DNA of 64,000 nucleotides, from assembly GCA_050485685.1 (NCBI GenBank), contig JBJHBW010000006.1, forward strand, positions 25,073-89,072, read 5' to 3'. The number at the start of each line of letters is the position of its first letter. Position 1 is the stretch's first letter. The translations under genes and the position numbers were made by a program. Of this stretch, positions 545 to 31,841 are shown piece by piece. Source of the stretch: Gammaproteobacteria bacterium. GTDB lineage: Bacteria > Pseudomonadota > Gammaproteobacteria > Steroidobacterales > Rariloculaceae. The notes below the pieces were generated by a model. It had not been told where the DNA came from. It saw nothing but the letters and a program-made list of their open reading frames with translations, and did not search any database.

Positions 545-1851
545 TGGATCCTGTAGTGATTGCGATTCTCGGCACAGTGCTGCTGTTCGTGCTGATCCTG
601 TTGCACGTGCCCATCGGTGTGGCCATGGCCCTGGCCGGCGTTGCGGGTTTCGCAATGCTGGCCGGTTTCTCACCTGCGGTGGCGATTCCCGGCATCGAGG
701 CCGTGACGGCATTCGAGAGCCTGGACCTGGCCATCATTCCGCTGTTCCTGCTGATGGGCAGTCTGGCCTCGGTGTCGGGTCTGTCGTCGGACCTGTACCG
801 GGTGGCGAATGCGTTCTTCGGCCACCGACGCGGTGGACTGGCTGTCGCAACAGTAGGTGGCAGCGGCGCCTTTGGCGCCGTCTGTGGATCATCTATCGCG
901 ACGGTCGCCACCATGACGCGTGTCGCGCTGCCACAGATGCTCGAAAGGGGATACAGGCCTGCCTTCGCTGCCGGTTCCATCGCGGCGGGCGGTACACTGG
1001 GTATCGTAATTCCCCCGTCGCTGATCCTGGTGATCTACGCGATTCTCGCCGAGCAGTTTGTGCTGGCGGTGTTCTTCGCGGCGCTGATCCCGGGCATCAT
1101 TGCCGCGCTTTTTCAGATTGCCGCTGCGGGCGTCTATGCGCGTATGCGTCCGGATGCCGCGCCGGCCCAGCCACGATCTTCATGGGCACAAAGGTGGGTG
1201 GCGCTGAAAAAGGCCTGGGCGGTCGTGGCACTGGGGCTGATCGTCACGGTGGGTATCTATGGCGGCCTGGTGACGGTGACTGAGGCGGCGGCACTGGGTG
1301 CGTTTTCTGCATTCGTCCTGACGGTTGCCCGTGGGCGACTGAACCGTGAGGTACTGAAGGAAGTCGCTCGCGACACCGCGATGAATACCGGCATGATCTA
1401 CATCGTGATCGTAGGCGCATTCACATTCAGCTATTTCATCGCGCTGTCCGGATTGCCGCAGGTGCTCGTCGAGGGCATAGGCGCGATGAATGTGCCGCCA
1501 CTGGTCATCATTCTGGTTCTTTATCTGATGTACCTGCTGCTGGGTTCGATTTTTGAATCGGTCGCGGCAATGGTCATCACGCTGCCGTTCGTGCTGCCGA
1601 TCGTGACGTTCCTCGGGTTCGATCCCATCTGGTGGGGCGTCATGCTGGTCATGGTGTCGGCGATCGGCATGATCACGCCGCCAATAGGTATGAACGTGTT
1701 CGTGATACACGGCATGGTGCCCCAGCTGGCTCTGACGACCATTTTCCGCGGTGTCACGCCGTTCTTTATCGCCGATCTGCTCAGGGTGCTGCTGCTGACC
1801 CTGCTGCCGGTGCTGACGCTCTGGTTGCCCGGAAAGATGGGACTTCTCTGA
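544..1851 (+). CDS. dctM: TRAP transporter large permease subunit (DctM)
   Basis: The 435-aa polytopic protein starts at MDPVVIAILGTVLL inside the longer ORF 151..1851. DctM-like sequence throughout, translationally coupled to dctQ. The 151-543 extension is Arg-rich junk. Confidence 0.9.
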   Translation: MDPVVIAILGTVLLFVLILLHVPIGVAMALAGVAGFAMLAGFSPAVAIPGIEAVTAFESLDLAIIPLFLLMGSLASVSGLSSDLYRVANAFFGHRRGGLAVATVGGSGAFGAVCGSSIATVATMTRVALPQMLERGYRPAFAAGSIAAGGTLGIVIPPSLILVIYAILAEQFVLAVFFAALIPGIIAALFQIAAAGVYARMRPDAAPAQPRSSWAQRWVALKKAWAVVALGLIVTVGIYGGLVTVTEAAALGAFSAFVLTVARGRLNREVLKEVARDTAMNTGMIYIVIVGAFTFSYFIALSGLPQVLVEGIGAMNVPPLVIILVLYLMYLLLGSIFESVAAMVITLPFVLPIVTFLGFDPIWWGVMLVMVSAIGMITPPIGMNVFVIHGMVPQLALTTIFRGVTPFFIADLLRVLLLTLLPVLTLWLPGKMGLL

Positions 1852-1963
1852 GTCTGCGGTTTCTGTACGTAGTTTTCGCAATGGCGTTGCCGGGTCGCAT
1901 GCATTTATCGTGATTGCAACGCCCGGGGTGGTCCCGGACATCCATTCAATCCGGAGATGCGAC

Positions 1964-2437
1964 GTGAAGAAAATCAGTTCGGCAATGTCAGTCATTGTGG
2001 CCGTTCTGCTGGTGGGTGCGTCATCGAACGCGCTGGCTCAGCCAGGCGACTATCCTGAGTTCCGTGGTGTGCAGGAAATGGCCAACCGCTGGGTGCAGGC
2101 CTACAACCGTCACGATCGAAACGCCCTTGGTGCCCTCTATGCGCGCGATGCCAGGCTGATGATGCATGGTGCGCCGACCATTTCGGGCAGGGATGCCATC
2201 GAGGAATTCTGGGCCGACGACTTCCAGGCCGGTGATCCGCTGACCGTGCTCACGGTGACGCATGCCGTCGAAGGCAGCGACATGATCCTCGTGCACGGTA
2301 ACTATCAGGTCATCAACCGTGAGGACGGTACGCAGGTCGGTATGGGCCGATTCGCTCACATCTGGCTGCTGGATGGCGGCGAATGGCGCCTTGATCGTGA
2401 TATGTGGAACCGGCCGTTCGAGCCTTATCGTCCCTGA
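1964..2437 (+). CDS. secreted SnoaL-like / DUF4440 (NTF2-fold) protein
   Basis: Signal peptide (KKISSAMSVIVAVLLVGASSNALA) followed by an NTF2-like pattern (WVQAYNRHDRNALGALYARDARL ... GGEWRLDRDMW). GTG start chosen after GGAG; start uncertain. Confidence 0.55.
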   Translation: MKKISSAMSVIVAVLLVGASSNALAQPGDYPEFRGVQEMANRWVQAYNRHDRNALGALYARDARLMMHGAPTISGRDAIEEFWADDFQAGDPLTVLTVTHAVEGSDMILVHGNYQVINREDGTQVGMGRFAHIWLLDGGEWRLDRDMWNRPFEPYRP

Positions 2438-3255
2438 CGCAGCAGCGCGGTCTTCAGTTCCCGCAGCTCGGAACGTAACGCGCGGATCTCGTGTTCCAGC
2501 TGCACGCCCTCATGGTGGACCGCGGCCTCGATATGGTCGCGGTCTGCTTCATGATCGGCAGCATGCATGGTCTGCATCGTGTTGACGATGATCGCGATGA
2601 ACAGATTCAGCATCGTGAATGTCGCAATCAGAATGAAGGGCACGAAGAACACCCAGGCCATCGGGTATGAGTCCATGACCGGCCGTACGATGCCCATGGA
2701 CCAGCTCTCCAGTGTCATGATCTGGAACAGCGTATACAGCGACGAAGGCACCGAGCCGAACCAGTCCGGGAACTGCTCGCTGAACAGGCTGGTCGCCATG
2801 ACCGCAAACACATAGAAGATGATGGCCAGCAGCCCGGCAATCGCTCCGATACCGGGTACCGCATGCAGCAGTGCTTCGACAATGAATCGAAGCCTGGGCA
2901 TGGTGGAAACGAGTCGCATTACACGCAGCACACGCAGCGTGCGCAGTACGGCGAAGGGCCCGGCAGCCGGAACCAGGGCAATACCGACGACGATGAAGTC
3001 GAACACGTTCCAGGGGTCGCGGAAGAACTTTCTCCCGTGACTGATCAGTTTCGCGACGATTTCCAGCACAAACACGCTGAGGATGATCTTATCCAGGCGT
3101 ATCAGCACCGGACCTATCTGCTGCATGACGTTCGGTGACGTCTCAAGGCCCAGTGTGATCGCATTGATCACGATCAGTGCGATGATGATCCGCTGCACCC
3201 GAGGGGATTCTACCCACGCTCCGATGCTGGCGCGGTCCATGGCGGCTGTCGGCAT
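2425..3255 (-). CDS. bacterial voltage-gated sodium channel (NaChBac/NavAb family, BacNaV)
   Basis: 6TM layout with S4 carrying Arg every third residue (LRTLRVLRVMRLV). Selectivity filter FQIMTLESWSMG matches the BacNaV TLESWSM signature. C-terminal heptad-like coiled coil. Start ambiguous (TTG 3279, ATG 3255 or 3240). Confidence 0.85.
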   Translation of the reverse strand: MPTAAMDRASIGAWVESPRVQRIIIALIVINAITLGLETSPNVMQQIGPVLIRLDKIILSVFVLEIVAKLISHGRKFFRDPWNVFDFIVVGIALVPAAGPFAVLRTLRVLRVMRLVSTMPRLRFIVEALLHAVPGIGAIAGLLAIIFYVFAVMATSLFSEQFPDWFGSVPSSLYTLFQIMTLESWSMGIVRPVMDSYPMAWVFFVPFILIATFTMLNLFIAIIVNTMQTMHAADHEADRDHIEAAVHHEGVQLEHEIRALRSELRELKTALLRQGR

Positions 3256-3560
3256 TCCCTGAGATCTCCGTCCCGTCAAAACGGCGGCAAGTATGCCGTG
3301 TGAGGTTTGCGCTGGCGACCTCAGACCCCGGTGTCAGCGTATTCCCGCGCCGCTACCGGTTTTGGGCGGGGCTGTCTCAGCCCCGTTGAGGGGGTGTCGC
3401 AAAATGCAAACATATCAGGATGATGCGCGAATATGCTTTATTGTGTGTGAACTTACTGTAAGCGTATTGCATCCGTCGGGCATTGGTGTAACTCTTTGCC
3501 GCAACACGGTTGGGCTCGCTTGCGGGGGCAGCTGTTTCAACCAATTCAGAGGGATTCGAA

Positions 3561-4154
3561 ATGTTCGAACTGGGCAAGAAGGGGGCACCGGTGCGGGGTC
3601 AGGAAGACACAAGCGGTGAGCGGGAAGACAATCGGCAGACTACCGCGGCGGCCTCAGCACGGCCGGCATCGTCGTCGGCCGGCAAACGGGAGGCTGCGGT
3701 GATCGGACCGTCCATACACATCGATGGCGATCTGCGCGGTGAGGAGGACCTGCTGATCGAAGGCGAGGTCAACGGTACCGTGCAGCTGAAGAGTAACAGT
3801 CTGACGATCGGTGCAAACGGCAAGGTGCGCGCGGATGTCTATGCGCATTCCATTTTTGTCGAAGGCCTGATGGAAGGTGACCTGTTCGGATCGGAGCGGG
3901 TTGCGATCCGCAAGACCGCCGAGGTTCGCGGTAACGTCACTTCCCCTCGCGTAAGTCTGGAGGAAGGGGCGCGATTCAAGGGCTCGATCGAGATGGATGG
4001 CGAGGCCGTGAAGGCGGCGCTGGGTTCGGCGCGTGGCGCGTCCGCGTCCGGCAGCACGGGCAGCCAGGCTGCCCGGCAGACGTCAGCTTCGCCGGCTTCG
4101 AAGTCAGACGTTGCGGGCCAGGGCGCTGCCGTAAAGACCGGCGCTACCGGCTAG
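3561..4154 (+). CDS. bactofilin family polymer-forming cytoskeletal protein
   Basis: Core typical of the DUF583/bactofilin beta-helix (IGPSIHIDGDLRGEEDLLIEGEVNGTVQL ... VYAHSIFVEGLMEGDL ... GNVTSPRVSLEEGARFKGSIEM). Disordered Ala/Ser-rich tails. ATG preceded by GAGGGA. Confidence 0.8.
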   Translation: MFELGKKGAPVRGQEDTSGEREDNRQTTAAASARPASSSAGKREAAVIGPSIHIDGDLRGEEDLLIEGEVNGTVQLKSNSLTIGANGKVRADVYAHSIFVEGLMEGDLFGSERVAIRKTAEVRGNVTSPRVSLEEGARFKGSIEMDGEAVKAALGSARGASASGSTGSQAARQTSASPASKSDVAGQGAAVKTGATG

Positions 4155-4218
4155 AGCGTACAAGTCCTCAGTCCACAGCACAGAGTCGCATGCGGATTTC
4201 GCTAACCGTCAGAACTGA

Positions 4219-4830
4219 GTGAGCGTGGTCGATACAGTCAGGCGATCGGCGGAATCCCGGGAATCGGTCAACACAGCGGCGCTGAATGCGCCGCTGTTCC
4301 GTTCGGTGATTGAACGCATGCACGGCGGAGGCCGTTGGGTGGTCCTCGACCTCGGGCCTGCCAGAAGCGGTACCGTAGGCCTGTTCAGCCAGTTTCGCTG
4401 CCGCCTGGAAATTGCGGACATCGCAACCGGCATCGACGCGCTGAACGCCGCGGAGGATCCTGCTCCGCTCGCCGACGCGATGTTGCCGCCGCAAAGGGAC
4501 GAACTCGTCGATGTCGTGTTGTGCTGGGATATTTTCAATTATCTGACCCGGCCGTCGCTGCGCGCTCTGATGGACGGCATTGCGCGCAGGTGTCATGCCG
4601 GCAGCCTCGTGCACGCGCTGATCGTCTATTCAGCACCGCGTATGTCATCACGGCCGGGGCGTTACGTGCCCACCGAGGATGGCCGCACGCTCAACGTCAG
4701 CGGCAGTGGCGCGCAGATCGAATCGCCGCGTTACTCGCCTGAAGATCTGACGCTGGCGATGCCGCGCTTCACCGTGGAACGGGCCATGTTGCTGCGCAAC
4801 GGCATGCAGGAGTTTCTGTTTCGCATGTGA
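4219..4830 (+). CDS. hypothetical protein, class I SAM-methyltransferase-like fold
   Basis: Motif I-like VVLDLGPARSG and a later DVVLCWDIFNYL segment. Coding-like composition, 64 nt downstream of the bactofilin gene. Function not supported beyond the fold guess. Confidence 0.4.
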   Translation: MSVVDTVRRSAESRESVNTAALNAPLFRSVIERMHGGGRWVVLDLGPARSGTVGLFSQFRCRLEIADIATGIDALNAAEDPAPLADAMLPPQRDELVDVVLCWDIFNYLTRPSLRALMDGIARRCHAGSLVHALIVYSAPRMSSRPGRYVPTEDGRTLNVSGSGAQIESPRYSPEDLTLAMPRFTVERAMLLRNGMQEFLFRM

Positions 4831-4839
4831 CGGCGGGTT

Positions 4840-6036
4840 TCAGAACCCGTGCAGATTGAACACGTGGCCGTGATCAGGGTCGTCGCGAAACGATTCGTAA
4901 TGCAGTCTCAGCAGCTCGGCGCCGTAATCGTTGCCGTTCGGAGTGCGCACGATGCTGTGCACGTGGCGACGCAGGGGAACCTCGCGCGGGCCTGGCAGTG
5001 CGACGGGACCCTGGTGATCGAACTCAATCCAGATCACCGGGCTGTGAATCCGGTAATAGAACACAGCGTCCGGACCGACAGCGCCGCGCCACGCAAACCA
5101 GGTGTTGTCCATGTGGGCGCGTACTTCGTCCATCCTGACTTCCGCATGCCCCTCCGGCATGTGGCTGACCCACAGTGCAATCAGATTCAGCAGGCCGGCG
5201 CGCTGGCTCGCTGACAGCGACGTCGCGGCAATACCCTGATAGGGAACCACGACATTGTCACTGAACATCTCGGCCAGGTTTTCGCCACGGCGCTTCACCG
5301 GGTCGAGAACGGCCGTCTGCTGCTGGTCGGCGGACAGCGATTGCATGAATGCGAAACCCAGATCCTGCTCCTCCTCCAGAACCGATGTGCCGGCATAGAT
5401 GCCCGATTCTGCAAAGGTGGGCTCGGAACCCATGAACGTCGGTGTCATGACGATCTGATCGCCGAGAATGAAGTAATTGATGATCAGGTGGTGACCGTCC
5501 AGCTGCCATCCCCAGGGCTCGTCGGCGGAGGGAAGGCCCATCATGGTCACCCAGTACAGGTGCTCGCCATAGGCATCGAAGTTGTCCACCAGCTCGGCAA
5601 GGTGGTGATTCAGGCGCATGATGTCGCGAGTGGTTTCATAGCCCCGCGCACTCAGGGATGCACGCAGCAGCGTATAGGTGGCTTCCCGCTGGGACTCCGT
5701 CATCTCGTCCAGGCTCACGCCTTCGCGCGGGAATGCGTGAATGTTGGCCCAGTTGCGCCACTCGCTATGCGTGACCGGGAAGGTCATCGCTTCATGCTGT
5801 TCCGGTGTCAGCACGGCCAGCAGCTGTTCGGCTGCCAGACGCACCGGCTCCGTGCTGATGCCGGTTTCAGCGATCTCGAACAGGTCGAGTATCGGTGTGC
5901 CGTCCGTGGTCAGCCCGGTCAGGGGCTCAGCCAGTGCCCGTTCCGCGCGTTCGGCAAAACCCTGCGCGTGGACGGTGGCGGATGCCGCTGTGGCCAGCAG
6001 GGTCAGTGTGACAGGCCATGCCGTTCTGCTGTTCAT
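4840..6036 (-). CDS. DUF3500 domain-containing secreted protein
   Basis: Signal peptide, then motifs I recognise from DUF3500 (PWGWQLDGHHLIINYF and HSIVRTPNGNDYG). Confidence 0.7.
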   Translation of the reverse strand: MNSRTAWPVTLTLLATAASATVHAQGFAERAERALAEPLTGLTTDGTPILDLFEIAETGISTEPVRLAAEQLLAVLTPEQHEAMTFPVTHSEWRNWANIHAFPREGVSLDEMTESQREATYTLLRASLSARGYETTRDIMRLNHHLAELVDNFDAYGEHLYWVTMMGLPSADEPWGWQLDGHHLIINYFILGDQIVMTPTFMGSEPTFAESGIYAGTSVLEEEQDLGFAFMQSLSADQQQTAVLDPVKRRGENLAEMFSDNVVVPYQGIAATSLSASQRAGLLNLIALWVSHMPEGHAEVRMDEVRAHMDNTWFAWRGAVGPDAVFYYRIHSPVIWIEFDHQGPVALPGPREVPLRRHVHSIVRTPNGNDYGAELLRLHYESFRDDPDHGHVFNLHGF

Positions 6037-6720: not shown

Positions 6721-7121
6721 GTTCTTATCGCCTCGCCATCAGCGAGCGGTGGTTCGGCGCCGGCCAGGTCGCTGGCGTCGGAATCTGCCGGCACCACCAG
6801 CAGTGTCATGCCGTCTACGGCGACGACACGGATATCGCTGCCCGTTGCCGGCGCATCCGGTGCGTCGCCTGACCAGATCGCATCCCAGCGCTCCATGCCG
6901 ATGCGCACCCGGATGCGGCTGTCCGGCGAACCGTCGCCGGTTGCCAGAAGCTGGCCGGTGGTTCCGACCAGATGTGAGTTCACCGGCTTGTTCTCATCGG
7001 CGGCCACACGCGAAAAAAGCGCCGTGATATGGCGCCAGAGAAGCACACGGGTGACCACGTACAGCAGCGCCAGCACAACGCCGAGCAGCAGCACGCCGGT
7101 GATGATATCCAGTACCCGCAT
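6717..7121 (-). CDS. NfeD-like membrane protein (C-terminal OB domain)
   Basis: N-terminal TM helix plus an NfeD-type OB segment (GTTGQLLATGDG...IRVRIGMERWDAIWSGD...GSDIRVVAVDGMTLLVVP). Its stop overlaps the start of the downstream DUF1080 gene (ATGA). Confidence 0.55.
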   Translation of the reverse strand: MRVLDIITGVLLLGVVLALLYVVTRVLLWRHITALFSRVAADENKPVNSHLVGTTGQLLATGDGSPDSRIRVRIGMERWDAIWSGDAPDAPATGSDIRVVAVDGMTLLVVPADSDASDLAGAEPPLADGEAIRT

Positions 7122-23627: not shown

Positions 23628-23704
23628 TGGTCGGGGTGATAGGATTTGAACCTACGGCCCCTGCCTCCCGAAGGCAGTGCTCTACCAGGCTGAGCTACAC
23701 CCCG
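23628..23704 (-). tRNA. tRNA-Pro (anticodon CGG)
   Basis: The reverse complement reads CGGGGTGTAGCTCAGCCTGGTAGAGCACTGCCTTCGGGAGGCAGGGGCCGTAGGTTCAAATCCTATCACCCCGACCA. It has a 7-bp acceptor stem, D and T arms (GGTTCAAATCC), anticodon loop TTCGGGA and an encoded CCA. Confidence 0.9.
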
Positions 23705-23803
23705 ACTGGGCGCCATTATATAGAGGGTATGGCGAAAAAACTGCGCGCATTCTACCAGCACCTTGTCGCGACGGGCATCCCTGATTTCGCTCGCAGGATC
23801 CGG

Positions 23804-24559
23804 ATGCCCGGATCAGCGCTTGTCGCGGTGTCCGCGGGTATTGCCGTGCTTCTGTCATGCGGCACAGTCAGCGCCGAAGTCAACAGCTACGCCACTGTAA
23901 CCAGCGAGTATGTCGCCCGTGGGCTTGCCGCGTCCGATGGTGCACCGGCGCTGCAGCTGGCTGTGGACTATCAGCATGATACCGGCTTTTTCGTCGGTGC
24001 CTGGGGTTCAAGCATAGACATCGACAATCCGACCGGTGGTCGTCGCTCAATAGAACTCAATCTGTATGCGGGCGTCCACCGGGAGCTTGGGGCGGGTTGG
24101 TCCGGCGCGTTGACCACGATCCGCTACACCTATCCGGGTGCATCCGTAAGTACATACCCTCATGAATCGGGAACTGTTTCCGCCACGCGGCGGTTCGATT
24201 ACAGCGAGTGGCTTCTGGGTGCGCAATGGGCAGGGCGAGCCTCCGCGGACAGCCGGGTGTCCATTGAGATCGGGTACAGTTCCGGCGTTTACGGTTCCCG
24301 CCAGTCGGCTCGACACCTCCAGGTTGGCGTCGGCCACATGCTGGCAAGCGGATGGGTGCTGAGCGGCTCTTTCGGGCGCAACGATCTGAGCGCGCTGCAG
24401 GTTCCCGCCTACCTGTACTGGGATCTTGGCGCTTCGGCCACCTGGTCGCGATTCACGCTGGATGTGCGCTGGTACGACAACGAAAGTGTGTACAGCGGAG
24501 GGTACGGCGGTTACGCCGCGGGTTCACGGTGGGTCGGGAGTCTGTCGGTTGCGTTCTGA
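23804..24559 (+). CDS. TorF/Gcw_chp family putative outer-membrane porin (TIGR02001-like)
   Basis: Signal peptide, then VTSEYVARGLAASDGAPALQLAVDYQHDTGFFVGAWGSSI, typical of this family, and a C-terminal ...GSLSVAF. Start at ATG 23804 (AGGA 7 nt upstream); the longer ORF runs through the tRNA. Confidence 0.65.
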   Translation: MPGSALVAVSAGIAVLLSCGTVSAEVNSYATVTSEYVARGLAASDGAPALQLAVDYQHDTGFFVGAWGSSIDIDNPTGGRRSIELNLYAGVHRELGAGWSGALTTIRYTYPGASVSTYPHESGTVSATRRFDYSEWLLGAQWAGRASADSRVSIEIGYSSGVYGSRQSARHLQVGVGHMLASGWVLSGSFGRNDLSALQVPAYLYWDLGASATWSRFTLDVRWYDNESVYSGGYGGYAAGSRWVGSLSVAF

Positions 24560-25907
24560 CGCCGACATCGCATCCATGCTTTTCGAGAACAGCGGATAAC
24601 GCCCGGCAGGCATTCAACGGTCCGTGCGGCGAATTGCTGCTCGTGGTCAGAAGCTTTTCGATGGCCGAGGGTGTCAGCGATGGCTGGCGCGCGACCAGCA
24701 GCGCGGCTACCCCGGCGACATGCGCCGCGGCCAGCGAACTGCCGGACCGATAGCCGTATCGTCCGTGCGGAACAGTGACCAGTATCTCATCAGCCGGCGC
24801 GAGAACGGCGTGAGACTGCATCAGCCTCATCGCGTGAGGCTGCGCGCCTATGACACTGCTCGCTGCCACGATGACACCGGGTACGCCTGCCGGGAAGCCC
24901 GGTGACTGGTTGCCGGCCGGCGCCGCTGCAATCACTATCCTGCCGTCGGTGATAGCCTGTTCGACCAGTCGTGACAGCAGCGTGTCGGCGGGGCCCGCGA
25001 TGCTCAGGTTGATGATGTCCACGCCCGACTCGATCGCATGTGTCAAAGCCTGCGCCAGCGTGAAACTGTTGCACCGTGCCGGCTGTTCGGGCTGAACATG
25101 CCAGCAGGCCTTCAGGACGTGTAGTCGCGCTTGCGGCGCGATACCCACCATACCGGTATGGTTGTTGGCGTTAGCGGCAATCACGCCGGCAATCGCGGTG
25201 CCATGTGCATCATCGGTGAAGTTTCCCGAGTCGCCTTCGACGAAGTCCTTGTGTTGCGCTATGCGACCGGCGAGGTCCGGGTGGCGAAGGTCCGCGCCGG
25301 TGTCGATGATCGCGATTGTTGTGCCCCGGCCGGTGCTGATGGCGTGGGCCTGCGGGATCTGCATTGCTCCCAGCGCATGCTGCAAAGGCGCATAAGGATC
25401 GTTGTAAAGCTCCGCCAACGCCGACTGCGTTTCGTATACATGCAACGGCTCGGCCGACCGGATCCCGTCAATGTCCGCCAGCCGGTCAAGTAGTGTGTCC
25501 AGATCGTGCGTCTCGGGGACGTGAAACACGATGCAGTACAAGCCCAGCGGCCGGATCGGCCACTCCGCGACCGGTTCCAGGTCAAATCTGCCGGCAATGC
25601 GCCTGGCAGTCTGGCGGACACCCGTCGACACACGATAGGCGGAACGGTTCAGATAGCGCGGCCCGGGGCGGCCGCTCAGATCCATGCGCGCCGCGTTCGG
25701 ATCGGAAATTGTCACAAGAATCTGGGTGCCGGGCCGGTCCATTGCCTGCAGCCTTTCCATCTGAGCTGGCGGCCAGACGGCTGCCGCGATCTCACTGGCG
25801 GCACTGTCTGTGTCCTGGGCCTGGCCGGGCACCGGCGCTATCAGCCAGAGCAGCAAAGTGAAGCCTGTAAGAAAGGCCGGAACCCGGACTCCGAGCGGGG
25901 CATTCAT
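24453..25907 (-). CDS. S8 family (subtilisin-like) serine peptidase with N-terminal propeptide-like region
   Basis: Signal peptide and catalytic contexts IAIIDTGAD (Asp), DDAHGTAIAGVIAA (His), SGSSLAAAHVAGVAALL (Ser). The Arg-rich last 35 or so aa look like read-through into the convergent gene. Confidence 0.85.
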   Translation of the reverse strand: MNAPLGVRVPAFLTGFTLLLWLIAPVPGQAQDTDSAASEIAAAVWPPAQMERLQAMDRPGTQILVTISDPNAARMDLSGRPGPRYLNRSAYRVSTGVRQTARRIAGRFDLEPVAEWPIRPLGLYCIVFHVPETHDLDTLLDRLADIDGIRSAEPLHVYETQSALAELYNDPYAPLQHALGAMQIPQAHAISTGRGTTIAIIDTGADLRHPDLAGRIAQHKDFVEGDSGNFTDDAHGTAIAGVIAANANNHTGMVGIAPQARLHVLKACWHVQPEQPARCNSFTLAQALTHAIESGVDIINLSIAGPADTLLSRLVEQAITDGRIVIAAAPAGNQSPGFPAGVPGVIVAASSVIGAQPHAMRLMQSHAVLAPADEILVTVPHGRYGYRSGSSLAAAHVAGVAALLVARQPSLTPSAIEKLLTTSSNSPHGPLNACRALSAVLEKHGCDVGVRTQPTDSRPTVNPRRNRRTLRCTHFRCRTSAHPA

Positions 25908-25916
25908 GCACGCACC

Positions 25917-26666
25917 TTACGGCTCGTTGTCTTGATCGACTGTGACAAGAAAGCTTTCGGCGATCAACACAGCCGGGTCGTTCTGTAGAGTTTCGACTAC
26001 CTGTGGCCAACCGTCGTGGTCCAGGGTCAGTGTATATACGCCGTTTTCGCTTGGGCCGGCTGCAATACCGAGTCCGAGTTCGCGTACGAGGCGGTCCATG
26101 GTGCTCGATGCGGCCTGCGGGCTCAGGGCCACGCGCACATAACGGCCTGCGGGCAGGCTGTCCGGAGTGGTGAGTGTGCGAAACTCGGCTGTATCGGGCG
26201 CGCGTGGCAGCACTGATAAGGTCAAGATACCCGCAAGCAACAGGATTGAGGTTGCAATTAAAGCGGCACGTGGAGCGCCTATCAGCCATGGAACCATCGC
26301 CGCCAGCCGCGCTGCCAGGACACTCATTGACCGACTGAGCTGTCCAACGATTCCCGGGTCGGTGGTCCTCGCGATACCGGAATCAGTTCCCTGCCTGTCT
26401 GTCCCGCGCCCACCCGATGGTGTTGCTCGTGCAATCAGAGCCGCGGCCCGGCTTGCCGCTGTTGCGGGTGGCATTGGATGCTCATGAAATGCGTGACCCA
26501 GTTCCCTATGCCATTGACTCAGTAGTTCCAGTTCGCTACGGCAGCGCAGGCAACTGCGCACGTGCGCGTCCACGGCTGCGTGTTCCTGCCCGGTCAAGGT
26601 GCCATTGACGAACCATGGAAGCACTTCCGCGGCCTGCTGGTGGGAGAGTTCACGCGCCGGTTTCAT
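25917..26666 (-). CDS. anti-sigma factor (zf-HC2 type, single TM)
   Basis: H-x3-C-x2-C motif (HVRSCLRCRSEL), a central TM (ALIATSILLLAGILTLSVL) and a periplasmic C-terminal domain. Start MKPARELS overlaps the sigma gene stop by 17 nt. Confidence 0.65.
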   Translation of the reverse strand: MKPARELSHQQAAEVLPWFVNGTLTGQEHAAVDAHVRSCLRCRSELELLSQWHRELGHAFHEHPMPPATAASRAAALIARATPSGGRGTDRQGTDSGIARTTDPGIVGQLSRSMSVLAARLAAMVPWLIGAPRAALIATSILLLAGILTLSVLPRAPDTAEFRTLTTPDSLPAGRYVRVALSPQAASSTMDRLVRELGLGIAAGPSENGVYTLTLDHDGWPQVVETLQNDPAVLIAESFLVTVDQDNEP

Positions 26667-27249
26667 CACTTTCTTCCTTTGCCGCTGATGCCAGTGTTGC
26701 AAGTGAAGCCTGCAGTCTGCGACGTGCATGAAACATACGGGTCTTGACGGTATTGAGTGGACAGTCGGTGATTTCAGCGATTTCGAGATAGGAGAATCCG
26801 TGCACCAGGGTCAGTTCCACCACGGTCCTGTGCTCGCTGCTGAGATTTGCGAATGCGTGCATCAGCCAATCCGATTGCTCAATGCGTGCCGCGGTGTCCG
26901 AAAGCGCATCGGGCACTTCACCATCCGGCATTGCCGGGTGCGGCGGACGCCGGCGGCGCAGTGCATTGGCCGCCATTCGCCAGGCAATCCCGAACACCCA
27001 TGTTGATACTCTGGATCGTTGCTGGAAGCGGTTCGCGTCACGCCAGACCACCAGCATCACATCGTCCGCTATCTCCTCGGCAAGCTGGGGGTCACCCAGT
27101 ATGCGCCTGACGAAGCCGAAGACCCGCGGCTGAAACGCCCTGTAAAGCGCTTCGAATGCGTCGTGGTCACCTGCAGCCACGTGTCCGAGCAGGGTCCGCT
27201 CAGGGTCGCCGTCTGCGGTGACCACCCTGTCAGGTCTCGTGCCGGTCAC
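26650..27249 (-). CDS. ECF (group IV) RNA polymerase sigma-70 factor
   Basis: Region 2 (DAFEALYRAFQPRVFGFVRRILGDPQLAEEIADDVMLVVW) and region 4 HTH (FSYLEIAEITDCPLNTVKTRMFHARRRL). Start uncertain: GTG 27249 or 27225 preferred over ATG 27360, which would overlap the upstream gene. Confidence 0.8.
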   Translation of the reverse strand: MTGTRPDRVVTADGDPERTLLGHVAAGDHDAFEALYRAFQPRVFGFVRRILGDPQLAEEIADDVMLVVWRDANRFQQRSRVSTWVFGIAWRMAANALRRRRPPHPAMPDGEVPDALSDTAARIEQSDWLMHAFANLSSEHRTVVELTLVHGFSYLEIAEITDCPLNTVKTRMFHARRRLQASLATLASAAKEESDETGA

Positions 27250-27329
27250 TGTTCGCGTCGACAGGATGATACCGTGGAGTATAACGGTTACAGCGACGCG
27301 CCATGGGTCGACGCTGGGCTCCCGTCGAG

Positions 27330-28412
27330 TCAGAAGTACGCATGCAGCTGGGCGAACCATTCGTCGCGATTCTGTGGCGCGGTGCCGGGTGTTCCGCGCA
27401 GGCGCCGGTAACCGACGCGACCCTGCAGGAACGGCACCGGGAAATATTCCCAGACTGCGCTGGTGCGGGTGCGCTGCCGCTGACCCGCTTCGGCGGGATA
27501 CAGGCGCTCGCCGGTCAGTTTCAGGTTGTGGCCGCGCGTTGGCATCCAGTTGGCTTCCAGTAGCGCGGCACGGCTGTGCCGACGTGGGCCGGTCTGGGTG
27601 TCGTCACGTATGTAGTCGACAGCCGCAAGCCAGGCTATCGGTCCGGTAAGAACTCCTGCATGGATTCCCGCCATGTTGCGGTCGCCAGCGTCCGTATCGT
27701 TGTGATTGAAACTTGCGCCGACCCGCCAGCGGCTGCGAATGTAGGTGGCATTCGTGCTGATCTGCTTGCCGTCATCGACTTCCGGTGCGCCGGCCGTGCC
27801 GTTGGTAACGGCGAACTGCGCCGACCAGCGCTGTCCGTCCAGGCCGAACTCCACGCCGGTGTCCGGTGTCGTGAAATTGATGCCGGTGGCCTGCTGGATG
27901 AAAGCGTTGTCGTCGGCCAGGCGCAGTCCGTGTGGCAGGAAGAATCGTCCAGCTCTCATGTACATCGAACCGCGACGCGGACGAAGCAGGGCATAGGACT
28001 GCCGGTTGGACGAACCTCTGGGACCGACGCGCTGATCGATATGCACCATCAATCGCTCAGGGACCAGCTGCACTGTCAGGTAGGCGAACATGTCCTGCAC
28101 TTCAAACTCTGTAGGTGGATCGTCGGCGTCATCGACGTCCATGCCGGCAACACGCGCGCGAAGATCTCCGCCGACAGATATCCAGCGATTGATGGCGCCG
28201 GTCCATGGTTCGCTGGTGGAGTCGCCACTGATGCGGTCACGTGCAAGCACATTGCTGCCCCATGCATTACCGAACACGGTTCGCTGTCCGCCGCCGCTCG
28301 GATTGACATGACAGTTCACACATTGCAATCCGCTGCGCACCGCCAGCCATGGTTCGGCATCGGCACGCTCCATCGTTGCACCAAGGCCGACTATCGTCAG
28401 CGTTAACATCAC
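27330..28412 (-). CDS. fused monoheme cytochrome-porin-like outer membrane protein (Cyc2-like architecture)
   Basis: Signal peptide ending ADA, with CVNCH (28308-28322) 11 residues after the predicted cleavage site. Then about 330 aa with alternating beta-strand pattern ending ...WFAQLHAYF. Start at GTG/ATG 28412/28409. Confidence 0.6.
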   Translation of the reverse strand: MMLTLTIVGLGATMERADAEPWLAVRSGLQCVNCHVNPSGGGQRTVFGNAWGSNVLARDRISGDSTSEPWTGAINRWISVGGDLRARVAGMDVDDADDPPTEFEVQDMFAYLTVQLVPERLMVHIDQRVGPRGSSNRQSYALLRPRRGSMYMRAGRFFLPHGLRLADDNAFIQQATGINFTTPDTGVEFGLDGQRWSAQFAVTNGTAGAPEVDDGKQISTNATYIRSRWRVGASFNHNDTDAGDRNMAGIHAGVLTGPIAWLAAVDYIRDDTQTGPRRHSRAALLEANWMPTRGHNLKLTGERLYPAEAGQRQRTRTSAVWEYFPVPFLQGRVGYRRLRGTPGTAPQNRDEWFAQLHAYF

Positions 28413-28519
28413 CGCGTGACGCAGGATCGGCAGGGCAAGCCGTGCACGGTGACAGGATGCACCAGCTTCCGGACTGGCCTTTTCAGGTGTGCCGTGCGTC
28501 CTGCCCAGGTGCGGGCCGG

Positions 28520-29452
28520 TCACTGGGCGGTGCCTCTTACTGTGAAAGTCAGTTTCAGGTCGCCGCCTTCGCGGCCGTCGCCCGACGGGAATGACCGCAC
28601 CCAATCACCGTCGAGGCGGTTTCCGGCCAGATCCAGGACAGGCGTCGGGCCGGTGCCTGTCAGGACCAGTCGATAGCTGGCGTCCCCGTGCTGCGTACCG
28701 GCCGGTGCGACATGAATAGACCGGGGATTTGCCAGCGGTACGCTGATCGATGCTATTGGGATATCGACTGCTGTGCCGGAGTCGAATGCACCATCGACTC
28801 CACTACGCTGCAATCTCACGGAACCGTAGTGCACCGTGGACGCGTCAAGCTCGCGATCGAACATGATAACGATACGTTCAGGCAGGGCCTCGATCTCACT
28901 GTCCGGGACGATAGATGATCCCAAGGCCCGTACGGCCATCATAGAGCTGGAGCTGCCCTGCTGCGCGCCTTCAGTTATCCACTGTCGAATCACATTGATG
29001 TCGCTTTGTGGTAGTGGTGGACCGCCTTCGGGCATGCGCGCTCCAACCGCCGCCGTGCCTTCAAGCTTTTGAATCAGGTAGCTGTCATCGGGATTGCCGG
29101 GTTCAACACGCATCAGGTCAGGTGCCTGAACACTGGGAACATCAACCAGCAGTCCGTAACTGTTTGCCGCATCCAGCATCAGCCCTTCCGGGGCTGCGGC
29201 TCCTGCGTGGCAGGCGGTGCAGATGGGCGTGAAGATGTGCGCCTGAATGGAAGGCAGCGTCGCTATCAGCGGGTCACCGGGCGGTGGCTGATATGGATCT
29301 TCAGGTGGTGGAGGTGGTGGTGGCGGGGCACCACCATTACCACCGCCGTTTCCCGGCGGCCCGCCGCCGCTGCTGCCGCCGCAGGCGCCGAGAAAAGTCG
29401 CAGCGAGGGCCACTGTGCATGCGCGGGCGACTTTGTACCTCGGGAATTTCAT
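28520..29452 (-). CDS. lipoprotein with cytochrome-c-type CxxCH domain (PSCyt1-like) and Ig-like C-terminal domain
   Basis: GGAGGA RBS and ATG 29452. Lipobox LGAC, a Gly/Pro-rich linker, and IFTPICTACHAG (CTACH at 29207-29221). This is followed by PGNPDDSYLIQK...MP...INVIRQWITEGA, the planctomycete-type cytochrome c pattern. C-terminal beta-rich domain. Confidence 0.6.
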   Translation of the reverse strand: MKFPRYKVARACTVALAATFLGACGGSSGGGPPGNGGGNGGAPPPPPPPPEDPYQPPPGDPLIATLPSIQAHIFTPICTACHAGAAAPEGLMLDAANSYGLLVDVPSVQAPDLMRVEPGNPDDSYLIQKLEGTAAVGARMPEGGPPLPQSDINVIRQWITEGAQQGSSSSMMAVRALGSSIVPDSEIEALPERIVIMFDRELDASTVHYGSVRLQRSGVDGAFDSGTAVDIPIASISVPLANPRSIHVAPAGTQHGDASYRLVLTGTGPTPVLDLAGNRLDGDWVRSFPSGDGREGGDLKLTFTVRGTAQ

Positions 29453-29579
29453 ATGCAATCCTCCGCCAGACCGTGATGGCCCCGAACGGGCGTATCTGTC
29501 TGCTCAGTGGTAGCAGGCAGGCCGGAGGTTCAAAGCGAAGCGGATTTTTTCAGTCCGACTGATCGAGGTACGGTCAGTG

Positions 29580-31841
29580 CTACGGAATCCAGGCGTAGCT
29601 CATCTTGATGAAGAAGACGCGGTCTGTCTCGGTCAGCGACCGGAACGTGCTGTCTTCGCGCAGGTTGCCGGAATAGCCGGCAAAGACCACTGTCTGCGGG
29701 TTCAGCTTGTATGAATACAGCAGCTGGGAACCGAAGGATTCGGTGCGTGGTTCCACGCCCGGAAAAACGTACATATCGGGATTGCGCTCTACTCGCTGGC
29801 GCTGCATCGTCAGGCGCACGAAGCTGCGCACGCTGAACTGCCAGGTCATCCGCAGGTCGGTCAGCTGGGCGTCGAAGATCGTCGGGCCTTCCTTGCCCGT
29901 GAATCGCTGCGATGTGTGCTGAAGCCGGATCAATAGATTGCGGTTCGCGTTCCACTCCAGGCTGGGCTCGAACATGACCTCATCAGCGATGCGCGCATTG
30001 GCGAAGTCTACCTGTTCGCTACGGCGAATCGCCGTGCCGACCGAGAGTCCGCCAAGCGGGCGTACCTGGCCGAAAGCGAATATTCCCTTTGCGTCGAAAA
30101 GCTCTCCGGCCCAGTACTGCTGCCGCATGATCAGGCCGGTGCGCATGAATGACTGCAAAGGACCGTTGAAAATGAAAAACAACTGTGTGTTGCGCTCAAG
30201 CAGCTGGCCGCCGTTTTCCACGGTGCGACTGTTCTGCATGCCGGTGCGCAGCTGGTTCCAGACGCGCACGCCGCCACCGTGCCAGACCCGTTCGATGTTT
30301 GCGTTGAGCTGCTCGACGCCGACGCGGCCGATGAATCCGCTGTCGGCGCGAAAACCTTCGTCCGTGGCAAAGCGATTGAAGCTCGCGTTCCACTGCCGCG
30401 TGTTGTAGTTGTACTGCACGCGGCTTGCCGAGCCTGTGAAACTGTCCTGCGGCTGCCCGTAAGCTGTGACGATCTCGTCCGGGTAGGCTGTGTCGGAGTG
30501 CAGGTACTGGAAGCGTATGTTGTGACTGTCGGTAAGCCGCAGGCGTCCGTCTATGCCGGTCACACGATTGTGATAGTCGTCGCCGGACCGCAGGGTCGTC
30601 AGAAAGCCTATTGTTGACGCGTCGCCGAAGCCACGGCTGTAGCGCCCGACAAGTGTTCTGTTCGACCGTTCAAGTCCTGCCATCGACGAGCGCTGTGACC
30701 CGGGCAGGAGCAGTGTGGTCAGCGAGTCGTCGGCGGCAAAAAGTCCGAAGGTGTTATTGCCGCTGCGGCCGGTGAGTTTGGCGCCGATATCGGGGTTCAC
30801 GACCGTGCGCGTGAAGACCGCGTTGATCGGTGTGTCGAAGTAGTCGGCACCTTCGAGAAAAAACGGACGCCGTTCCGGAAAGGATATTGCGAACGGGTTG
30901 TTGACGGTCAGCTGTGCCTGATCCGCCTCGACCTGAGAGAAGTCCGGATTCAGTGCGAAATTCGCCGTCAGGTTCGGCGTAATGCCCCAGCGCACGTTGA
31001 CGCCGACGTCGGAATCGGTGTCTGCCTTCGACAGCCTTTCAGTCACGTTGTCGTAGCGTTGTACGTGTGATGCCGTCAGTGAGGGCACGATCTCAAGGCC
31101 GCGGCCCGGGCGGGCATCGGCAAAGCCGCGTACGCGCGTGGTCTGGCACAGGTAACAGTTTCGGCCGCGTTCCTGCGGATTGATCGACAGTCGACGGCGG
31201 TTCTCGCGCGGGTAGAAGCGGATCAGGTCTATGCCCCAGGTCTGCGGCGTGTCGGTGGACGGAAAGCGCAGCTGGCTGAACGGAATCGCGAACTCGACGA
31301 TATAGCCGTTGTCGGTAATGCGGCCGGCCGAATCCCAGATCGCGTCCCACGAGCTGTCGGTGTTGCCGTTGACGTCGTCGTGGATGCGGTCAGTCTGCAC
31401 GCCGAGTGCGTTGACAAAGAACTCGAACGCGCGACGCTCATCGTTGAACGTGTCGATCACGATGCCGACTGAGTCGTCATCGAGTCCGGAGTCCCGGTCG
31501 CGAAGATATGCGCGGATGGCAGAAGGGTCCGGATCGCGTGCATGAAATGCGACCAGCAGCCTGGAGCCATCCTCGATCAGGTAAGCGGTGGTACGCACCG
31601 GAGCCGGTTCGTTTTCGCGCGGATTGGTTTCGATGTTGAGTTCGAAGGTCAGCGCATCGGCCCAGAACGGCTCATCGAGCACGCCGTCGACGCGGATAGT
31701 GCCATCGGTTCGCGGCACGACAGGAATTCCGTCGTCTGCGGCCGAACCTTGAGATGTCGGACCCGACTGCGCGCCGGCCGCGGATGCGACAATGAGCGCG
31801 ATCACCGCGGTCGCGCTTCGGTACCCCCCAAACCGGCGCAA
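29580..31841 (-). CDS. DUF5916 / carbohydrate-binding family 9-like domain protein with C-terminal beta-barrel
   Basis: Signal peptide and an N-terminal CBM9-like segment (IRVDGVLDEPFWADA...VAFHARDPDP...DSVGIVIDTFNDERRAFEFFVN). About 500 aa of beta-rich sequence ending ...SYAWIP. Confidence 0.7.
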   Translation of the reverse strand: MRRFGGYRSATAVIALIVASAAGAQSGPTSQGSAADDGIPVVPRTDGTIRVDGVLDEPFWADALTFELNIETNPRENEPAPVRTTAYLIEDGSRLLVAFHARDPDPSAIRAYLRDRDSGLDDDSVGIVIDTFNDERRAFEFFVNALGVQTDRIHDDVNGNTDSSWDAIWDSAGRITDNGYIVEFAIPFSQLRFPSTDTPQTWGIDLIRFYPRENRRRLSINPQERGRNCYLCQTTRVRGFADARPGRGLEIVPSLTASHVQRYDNVTERLSKADTDSDVGVNVRWGITPNLTANFALNPDFSQVEADQAQLTVNNPFAISFPERRPFFLEGADYFDTPINAVFTRTVVNPDIGAKLTGRSGNNTFGLFAADDSLTTLLLPGSQRSSMAGLERSNRTLVGRYSRGFGDASTIGFLTTLRSGDDYHNRVTGIDGRLRLTDSHNIRFQYLHSDTAYPDEIVTAYGQPQDSFTGSASRVQYNYNTRQWNASFNRFATDEGFRADSGFIGRVGVEQLNANIERVWHGGGVRVWNQLRTGMQNSRTVENGGQLLERNTQLFFIFNGPLQSFMRTGLIMRQQYWAGELFDAKGIFAFGQVRPLGGLSVGTAIRRSEQVDFANARIADEVMFEPSLEWNANRNLLIRLQHTSQRFTGKEGPTIFDAQLTDLRMTWQFSVRSFVRLTMQRQRVERNPDMYVFPGVEPRTESFGSQLLYSYKLNPQTVVFAGYSGNLREDSTFRSLTETDRVFFIKMSYAWIP

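Follow-up and report, generated by a model that had tools for sequence, protein, structure and literature searches.

We describe here a two-gene system on a 64,000-nucleotide stretch of DNA (the window; positions 25,073 to 89,072 of the forward strand of contig JBJHBW010000006.1, assembly GCA_050485685.1) from a gammaproteobacterium of the family Rariloculaceae, order Steroidobacterales. It consists of a gene for a fused haem-porin, a predicted outer-membrane barrel with a single N-terminal haem c motif, and a gene for a lipoprotein cytochrome c immediately upstream of it. On balance we think it probable that the two products form an electron-transfer pair of the outer membrane and periplasm which works like Cyc2, is controlled by an extracytoplasmic function (ECF) sigma factor and represents a separate, unnamed sister family. 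The initial annotation of this DNA, made from the letters alone, had proposed a Cyc2-like cytochrome-porin. The architecture on which that proposal was built holds (signal peptide, one N-terminal CxxCH, 16-strand porin like OprP); the assignment to Cyc2 itself does not, the defining motifs of that family being absent.

The haem-porin and its relation to Cyc2

Translation of the haem-porin gene (Table 1) gives a signal peptide, a CVNCH motif 11 residues past the predicted cleavage site (ADA before the cut, EPW after it) and a C-terminus reading QLHAYF, all as first annotated. CVNCH is the only CxxCH in this protein, and CTACH the only one in the lipoprotein. The original length of 360 residues, counted from a GTG at 28412, has to be revised. 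A GTG at 28523 is the likelier start since it overlaps the lipoprotein stop codon (TGA) in the sequence GTGA and has a Shine-Dalgarno sequence (AAGAGG) 9 nt upstream. The precursor then has 397 residues, as does an identical public protein (P0001), and the choice of start leaves the mature protein unchanged. The FeGenie length filter for Cyc2 (at least 365 residues) lies between the two values.

Scans of the haem-porin against Pfam and NCBIfam gave no match. It nevertheless belongs to a large family. A word-indexed search returned more than 1,000 homologues, nearly all of them nameless, the few names given being “porin family protein”, “Cytochrome c domain-containing protein” and “Phosphate-selective porin O and P”; when 1.84 billion cluster representatives were searched with a profile, 2,193 matched at E ≤ 1e-3, mostly from Steroidobacteraceae and Woeseiaceae. 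A one-genome-per-species collection contains at least 434 loci. We found no description of the family in the searchable literature, and databases label its members hypothetical or porin. The Woeseiaceae Cyc2 homologues reported earlier group with the Cyc2 of Tenderia, a different protein (PMC6850669).

In an alignment of 31 homologues the consensus mature N-terminus is AEPYLAVRxGLKCxxCHxNPxGGGMRNAFGN. Conservation of the haem motif in orthologs, on which the initial annotation depended, is complete: both Cys and the His are invariant in these sequences and in all of 216 full-length members, among which E, P, C, C, H, GGG and R around the site are 98–100% conserved. The family can be recognized by the signature AEP[YW][LIM]A[VIL]xxGxxCxxCHxNxxGGGxR, a 16-strand barrel, LPYGLRLxDD in the L3 position and a C-terminal [LV]Hx[FY]F, all of which the window protein possesses. 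The typical length is about 360–370 residues. Two long members, P0211 and P0200, were inspected as possible lipoprotein-porin fusions of the Rosetta-stone type and rejected: P0211 (583 residues) has an insertion of ~230 residues, rich in Cys, Glu and Lys, between haem motif and barrel, while P0200 looks like a frameshifted gene call.

The barrel predicted in the initial annotation is recovered by AlphaFold (31-sequence alignment, mean predicted local distance difference test score, pLDDT, of 73) as exactly 16 beta-strands running from residue 78 to the C-terminus. Foldseek matched the model to 16-strand porins of the PDB (chitoporin, Omp32, OprP and PorB; E 4e-13 to 3e-11, with OprP, 2o4v, at 3e-11). 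Weak matches to Porin_O_P occur in 13 of the 31 homologues and to Porin_4 in six, with none in the window protein. In the model a long connection between strands 5 and 6 appears to occupy the position of L3 in classical porins, and the sequence there, FLPYGLRLxDDxAFIRQxTGINF, is the best conserved of the family; its acidic DD pair would suit a cation. As fourth residue from the C-terminus 83% of the 216 members have His (His357 in the window protein, codon at about 27342–27344) and 14% have Asn, and canonical Cyc2 sequences have no corresponding His. Since strand alternation should point His357 into the lumen near the periplasmic rim of the modelled barrel, it is a candidate second haem ligand. 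PDB sequences searched with a profile gave only cytochrome c552 matches around CxxCH, at chance level.

Cyc2 has been defined by a signal peptide, one CXXCH with AXPXFAR[Q/K][T/Y] upstream and PXL downstream (four residues after CXXCH), and a 16-strand barrel resembling OprO/OprP; the upstream motif served as inclusion filter (Keffer et al. 2021, PMC8406198). The haem peptide of Cyc2PV-1, QTGAACLSCHFQTFPALNAFGR, is known from a mass-spectrometry table (PMC8406198, Table S1), and this segment binds haem experimentally (PMC8406198). For comparison we scanned metagenome contigs with the back-translated motif and obtained 84 full-length motif-positive proteins with a median length of 458 residues, one of which (L069) has the haem peptide of Cyc2PV-1 but for one residue.

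Aligned without gaps from the mature N-terminus, Cyc2 reads I-P-A-F-A-R-Q-T-G-x-x-C-x-x-C-H and the window protein E-P-W-L-A-V-R-S-G-L-Q-C-V-N-C-H. The Cyc2PV-1 peptide and the 84 metagenomic sequences share with the family the pattern xPx[F/L]A..xGxxCxxCH. The A, P, hydrophobic, A and G positions of the Cyc2 motif are common to both, as is their spacing, and N.FG follows shortly after in both. The motif itself, PxFAR[QK][TY], occurs in none of 270 retrieved family proteins, the window protein reading AEPWLAVRS; PxL is likewise absent from these 270, the consensus after the His being xNPxGGGxR (VNPSGGGQR in the window).

Cyc2 is reportedly divided into clusters 1–3, after McAllister in 2020 and Keffer in 2021. 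A surrogate Cyc2 hidden Markov model (HMM) built from the 84 metagenomic proteins scored the window protein at ~7 bits and any family member at no more than 34.6 bits. In the opposite direction the family HMM gave at most 19.5 bits on Cyc2 proteins, and the scores in both directions stem mostly from the signal peptide and haem motif. NCBIfam cannot serve as a test of Cyc2 membership as it has no match for canonical Cyc2 either.

With hhalign, in profile-profile comparison, the family and Cyc2 profiles matched at full length with a probability of 98–99% (E 1e-12 to 1e-16), and the haem segment alone matched at 96.5% (E 7e-10, score 44.1). Column shuffles of the Cyc2 haem segment in which CxxCH was kept scored 25.2 ± 2.7 (maximum 31.9), and the unrelated haem region of the lipoprotein scored 22.2 against the haem segment. 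The similarity of the flanks is therefore specific, standing about seven standard deviations above the shuffle mean. These comparisons support remote homology of the N-terminal segment to the haem segment of Cyc2. Given the missing PxFAR[QK][TY] and PxL motifs and the low reciprocal HMM scores, we regard the proteins as a sister family with the design of Cyc2 rather than as Cyc2.

The lipoprotein cytochrome and the regulatory neighbourhood

The translation of the gene just upstream bears out its earlier description as a lipoprotein with a lipobox, a Gly/Pro tether and one CxxCH (Table 1). Its second part is an Ig-like domain, also as proposed: AlphaFold models residues 174–305 with pLDDT above 90, the fold matches the Ig folds of CopC and SbsC, and many homologues carry precomputed PF13205 (Big_5) assignments. 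Foldseek speaks to this domain only, since the cytochrome domain is modelled with pLDDT below 50. As to the description of the latter as a planctomycete-type cytochrome c domain, many homologues have precomputed PF07635 (PSCyt1) assignments, whereas the direct PSCyt1 match reaches 15.3 bits against a cutoff of 22.

Among 30 lipoprotein homologues the lipid-attachment Cys, CxxCH and an M-P pair are invariant, and the Gly/Pro tether, IQxxVFTPxCxxCH, RMP and IRQWIxxGA are invariant or nearly so. The Met of the M-P pair is presumed to be the axial haem ligand. Gly rather than Asp follows the lipid-bearing Cys, so by the rule established for E. coli the lipoprotein is probably sorted to the outer membrane. 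Two variants occur, chiefly in Woeseiaceae. In 13 homologues, mostly from metagenome-assembled genomes (MAGs) of that family, CxxxxCH replaces CxxCH (for example CAVSGCH or CATSGCH; read in the first 110 residues at L158, L186 and L194 and in the first 60 at L161 and L181), and such a CX4CH site may require a specialised haem lyase. Forms of ~400 residues, common among the Woeseiaceae-type homologues, have a second, C-terminal cytochrome c domain.

Gene neighbourhoods were compared in the best 80 of 434 confirmed matches from the one-genome-per-species collection, which come from Steroidobacter, Peristeroidobacter, Povalibacter, Woeseiaceae, and Nevskiales and Lysobacterales MAGs. The lipoprotein gene lies immediately upstream of the haem-porin gene in 76 of these loci. 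Together with the GTGA translational coupling and its retention beside deep-branching relatives, this makes the lipoprotein a genuine partner, which the initial annotation had thought plausible. The contigs of five distant family members were also examined (L201, L202, L204, L205 and L206; four are shorter than 5 kb). A lipoprotein-type cytochrome adjoins the porin in four of the five, directly upstream in L204, L205 and L206 and, as a multidomain form, downstream in L202, and further c-type cytochromes lie alongside in the same four. Linkage to c-type cytochromes is thus old and recurrent, and we consider it the strongest contextual evidence for electron transfer. The L202 genes form an apparent operon (1436–5855) of a YHS-domain lipoprotein, the haem-porin, a 559-residue multidomain cytochrome, whose first cytochrome-like domain has CACH in place of CxxCH, a cytochrome c lipoprotein and a cytochrome b562.

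Table 1. Features of the haem-porin region (23.7–29.5 kb), numbered from the first nucleotide of the window
Feature	Position	Strand	Characteristics
Fused haem-porin	27330..28523	-	CVNCH 28308-28322; signal peptide, 57-residue N-terminal haem segment, predicted 16-strand beta-barrel, C-terminal ...LHAYF
Lipoprotein monohaem cytochrome c	28520..29452	-	CTACH 29207-29221; lipobox LGAC, Gly/Pro tether, PSCyt1-type domain, conserved M-P, then Ig-like (Big_5) domain
Candidate ECF-type promoter	29504..29533	-	TTGAACC-N17-CACTGA, 79 nt upstream of lipoprotein ATG 29452
ECF sigma factor	26650..27360	-	Sigma70_r2 and Sigma70_r4_2; TIGR02937 79.6 bits (cutoff 42.9); likely start GTG 27249 or 27225
Membrane anti-sigma factor	25917..26729	-	N-terminal zf-HC2 domain (HxxxCxxC), 26.5 bits; likely start ATG 26666; directly downstream of sigma gene
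Secreted S8 (subtilisin-family) serine peptidase	24453..25907	-	Peptidase_S8, E 1.4e-36
TorF-family (Gcw_chp) putative small porin	23729..24559	+	TIGR02001 101 bits (cutoff 47); PF09694 E 4e-21; convergent with S8 gene

In order of transcription on the minus strand the lipoprotein and haem-porin genes are followed by those for the ECF sigma factor, the zf-HC2 anti-sigma factor and the S8 peptidase. Within 8 kb of the haem-porin gene a sigma factor is encoded in 53 of the 80 loci, an anti-sigma factor in 42 and an S8 peptidase in 48; a TorF-family porin is nearby in 43. These genes are often divergent from the lipoprotein/porin pair.

The candidate promoter is the single match to its motif on either strand of the 64 kb (at 29532). 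Related loci have TTGAAC(C)-N17-(G/C)CACTCA about 60–80 nt before the lipoprotein start, embedded in intergenic DNA that otherwise cannot be aligned; an alignment of eight taxa has no invariant blocks apart from TTGAAC and CACT.A. A strict form of the motif has 71 matches on both strands of the 2.2 Mb making up the 80 loci, of which 40 precede the lipoprotein gene; another 15 are situated at the 5' end of the gene for the ECF sigma factor. The pair is thus the apparent target of the adjacent sigma system, whose sigma factor would read this promoter. The initial annotation had noticed neither this link nor the large size of the haem-porin family. At L145 the -35 element is present four times in a 13-nt tandem repeat (GGCGAATGAACCC) about 85–125 nt before the lipoprotein start (near 6940–6980). 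A second promoter was sought between the porin and sigma genes by comparison with L121 and L122, and the spacer proved not to be conserved.

A related arrangement is found at one locus, L058 (8450–13484), where a protein that has a canonical Cyc2 motif (PSFARQTGYVCAVCH) and, like the haem-porin family, GGG after it is encoded upstream of a TorF-like porin, ECF sigma factor, anti-sigma factor and S8 peptidase, the last 40% identical to that of the window. By this gene set Cyc2 and the haem-porin family share one type of regulatory module, and the L058 protein may be an intermediate between the two.

The remaining features of the region call for brief comment. The TorF and S8 open reading frames overlap by ~107 nt at their 3' ends; as the last ~35 residues of the S8 frame are Arg-rich and look non-coding, its true stop may be earlier or the sequence may contain an error. 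A tRNA-Pro (CGG) occupies 23628–23704 on the minus strand, and the TorF-type gene most likely begins at ATG 23729 since the listed frame of 310 residues from 23627 begins inside this tRNA. The gene directly upstream of the pair (29580–31841, minus strand), for a DUF5916/CBM9-like outer-membrane protein of 753 residues, was considered and excluded from the system, homologues being present in none of the 80 loci; its position next to the pair is therefore peculiar to this genome. The 64-kb window, which encodes housekeeping genes, contains no Ccm genes, other cytochromes or canonical Cyc2 motifs.

Proposed electron path and competing explanations

In the mechanism that we favour the porin precursor would be exported and one haem c attached at CVNCH. 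The haem segment seems too short to fold as a free cytochrome and would pack at or inside the periplasmic mouth of the 16-strand barrel. A small redox-active solute, with Fe(II) as the leading if unproven candidate by analogy with Cyc2, would enter the pore and exchange an electron with the porin haem. The electron would then pass to the monohaem (His/Met) cytochrome of the lipoprotein, which its Gly/Pro tether would hold on the inner side of the outer membrane, and would go on to the respiratory chain. Transcription of the operon would depend on the adjacent ECF sigma factor, which would recognise its promoter and itself be held by the membrane zf-HC2 anti-sigma factor. Given this control and the S8 and TorF genes that share the conserved neighbourhood, the operon is probably not expressed constitutively but in response to an envelope cue.

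Several observations weigh against this proposal. The haem segment (residues 30–74) has pLDDT below 50 and is not placed by the model with respect to the barrel. The 216 full-length members have no invariant distal haem ligand, the C-terminal His falling short of this at 83%. Compared alone with hhalign, the barrels of the family and of Cyc2 are not significantly similar (E 0.08), so that the claim of homology rests on the haem segment and the shared fold. The distant member L201 has no cytochrome neighbour. The hosts (Steroidobacter, Peristeroidobacter, Povalibacter and Woeseiaceae) are heterotrophs and are not known to oxidise iron. Lastly, control by an ECF sigma factor suits stress or sensing at least as well as it suits energy metabolism, if not better; it suggests an inducible, possibly protective or sensing, function.

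This last point leads to the alternative that survives best, although we consider it rather unlikely, namely that the haem-porin and cytochrome constitute a redox or metal sensor which signals to the anti-sigma factor, with the S8 peptidase cleaving the latter. Like FecA in relation to FecIR, the pair would be sensor and target at once. Such a role would account for the frequency with which sigma, anti-sigma and S8 genes occur within 8 kb (42–53 of 80 loci, often divergent from the pair), for the promoter motif common to the pair and the sigma gene, and for the equal module beside the canonical-motif Cyc2 of L058, and it suits hosts that are not known to be lithotrophs. Control by a sigma factor does not by itself make the product a sensor, however, and no domain was found by which either protein of the pair would be joined to the anti-sigma factor. 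Of the loci with long flanks about a third are without a sigma gene nearby. Around the porin genes of the five distant members, cytochrome or unrelated genes were called but none for a sigma or anti-sigma factor, on contigs of which four are under 5 kb.

That the protein is a true but divergent Cyc2 orthologue serving lithotrophic or detoxifying oxidation of Fe(II) is in our opinion improbable. The equal architecture and the homologous haem segment would be expected of an orthologue, and divergence of the barrel would be no obstacle since Cyc2 barrels are themselves poorly conserved (PMC8406198). All 270 family proteins lack both PxFAR[QK][TY] and PxL, however, and reciprocal HMM scores of no more than 35 and 20 bits come mainly from signal peptide and haem motif. 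The proteins are moreover shorter (about 360–370 residues against a median of 458) and have motifs of their own in the GGGxR after the haem site, the L3 motif and the C-terminal LHxYF.

Least probable is that the protein is an ordinary solute porin, with an N-terminal Cys pair that is structural or binds metal without haem, and that it lies beside a cytochrome incidentally: weak Porin_O_P or Porin_4 matches in some homologues, the bare name “porin family protein” given to one of them by NCBI and the unplaced N-terminal segment would agree with it, but the His of CxxCH is as fully conserved as the two Cys, the flanks match the haem-binding Cyc2 segment well above controls that share only CxxCH, and the linkage to c-type cytochromes persists across deep branches.

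Wider implications and comparison with known systems

Returning to the electron-transfer pair, what the sequences appear to describe is a known design, the fused cytochrome-porin, with motifs and a dedicated regulatory switch of its own and with an obligate partner. Iron oxidation by microbes is inferred from metagenomes chiefly through Cyc2 as genetic marker, and Steroidobacteraceae and Woeseiaceae are very abundant in soils and coastal sediments. Cyc2 is defined partly by a motif that is absent here. Should the pair move electrons across the outer membrane, the potential for iron oxidation and for extracellular electron transfer would be undercounted in surveys, and heterotrophic hosts would gain a redox trait that had not been suspected in them. 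We advance, more tentatively, the general view that fused haem-porins comprise a second family, hitherto unrecognised, whose members each have a lipoprotein cytochrome c dedicated to them, are switched by ECF sigma factors in Steroidobacterales and act as an inducible outer-membrane electron gate in heterotrophs of soil and marine sediment. Oxidation of Fe(II), Mn(II) or reduced organics, or the uptake of electrons, could be the work of such a gate, which marker searches based on Cyc2 would overlook. The conserved ECF promoter would provide a specific regulatory switch, which canonical Cyc2 lacks, and as there are cultured hosts (Steroidobacter, Peristeroidobacter and Povalibacter) a direct search can be made for the inducing signal and, by way of it, for the substrate.

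The closest known system is Cyc2, represented by the protein of Acidithiobacillus ferrooxidans and by Cyc2PV-1 of Mariprofundus. Like the window protein it has a signal peptide, a single CxxCH about 12 residues from the mature N-terminus and a 16-strand barrel resembling OprP and general porins, and like the window locus it has periplasmic c-type cytochromes nearby. It differs in having PxFAR[QK][TY] where the window family has EP[YW][LIM]A[VIL], and PxL in place of NPxGGGxR, and it is longer by ~90 residues. The barrel of the window family is not detectably similar to that of Cyc2, yet is unusually well conserved internally (FLPYGLRLxDDxAFIRQ in L3 and the C-terminal LHxYF). The obligate partner is a PSCyt1-type lipoprotein instead of Cyc1 (cytochrome c4), and the hosts are heterotrophic Steroidobacterales, which are not known to be iron oxidisers.

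OprO/OprP (PF07396) have the 16-strand fold in common with the window porin, as the weak Pfam matches in the homologues also indicate, but possess no haem motif, whereas L3 of the window family contains the acidic DD pair. Signalling of the FecIRA type likewise involves an ECF sigma factor and a membrane anti-sigma factor encoded beside an outer-membrane-protein operon with a sigma-type promoter. The window system is without a TonB-dependent transducer or FecR-type anti-sigma factor and has instead a zf-HC2 anti-sigma factor, an S8 protease and a TorF-type porin.

Finally, in MtrCAB, MtoAB/PioAB and the Pcc systems of Geobacter an outer-membrane barrel and a periplasm-facing c-type cytochrome are likewise encoded side by side and provide an electron path across the outer membrane. 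In all of these a barrel of 20–26 strands sheathes a separate multihaem cytochrome (8–10 haems), whereas the window barrel is predicted to have 16 strands and has a single haem motif of its own, and its partner would carry one haem, or two in the Woeseiaceae forms.

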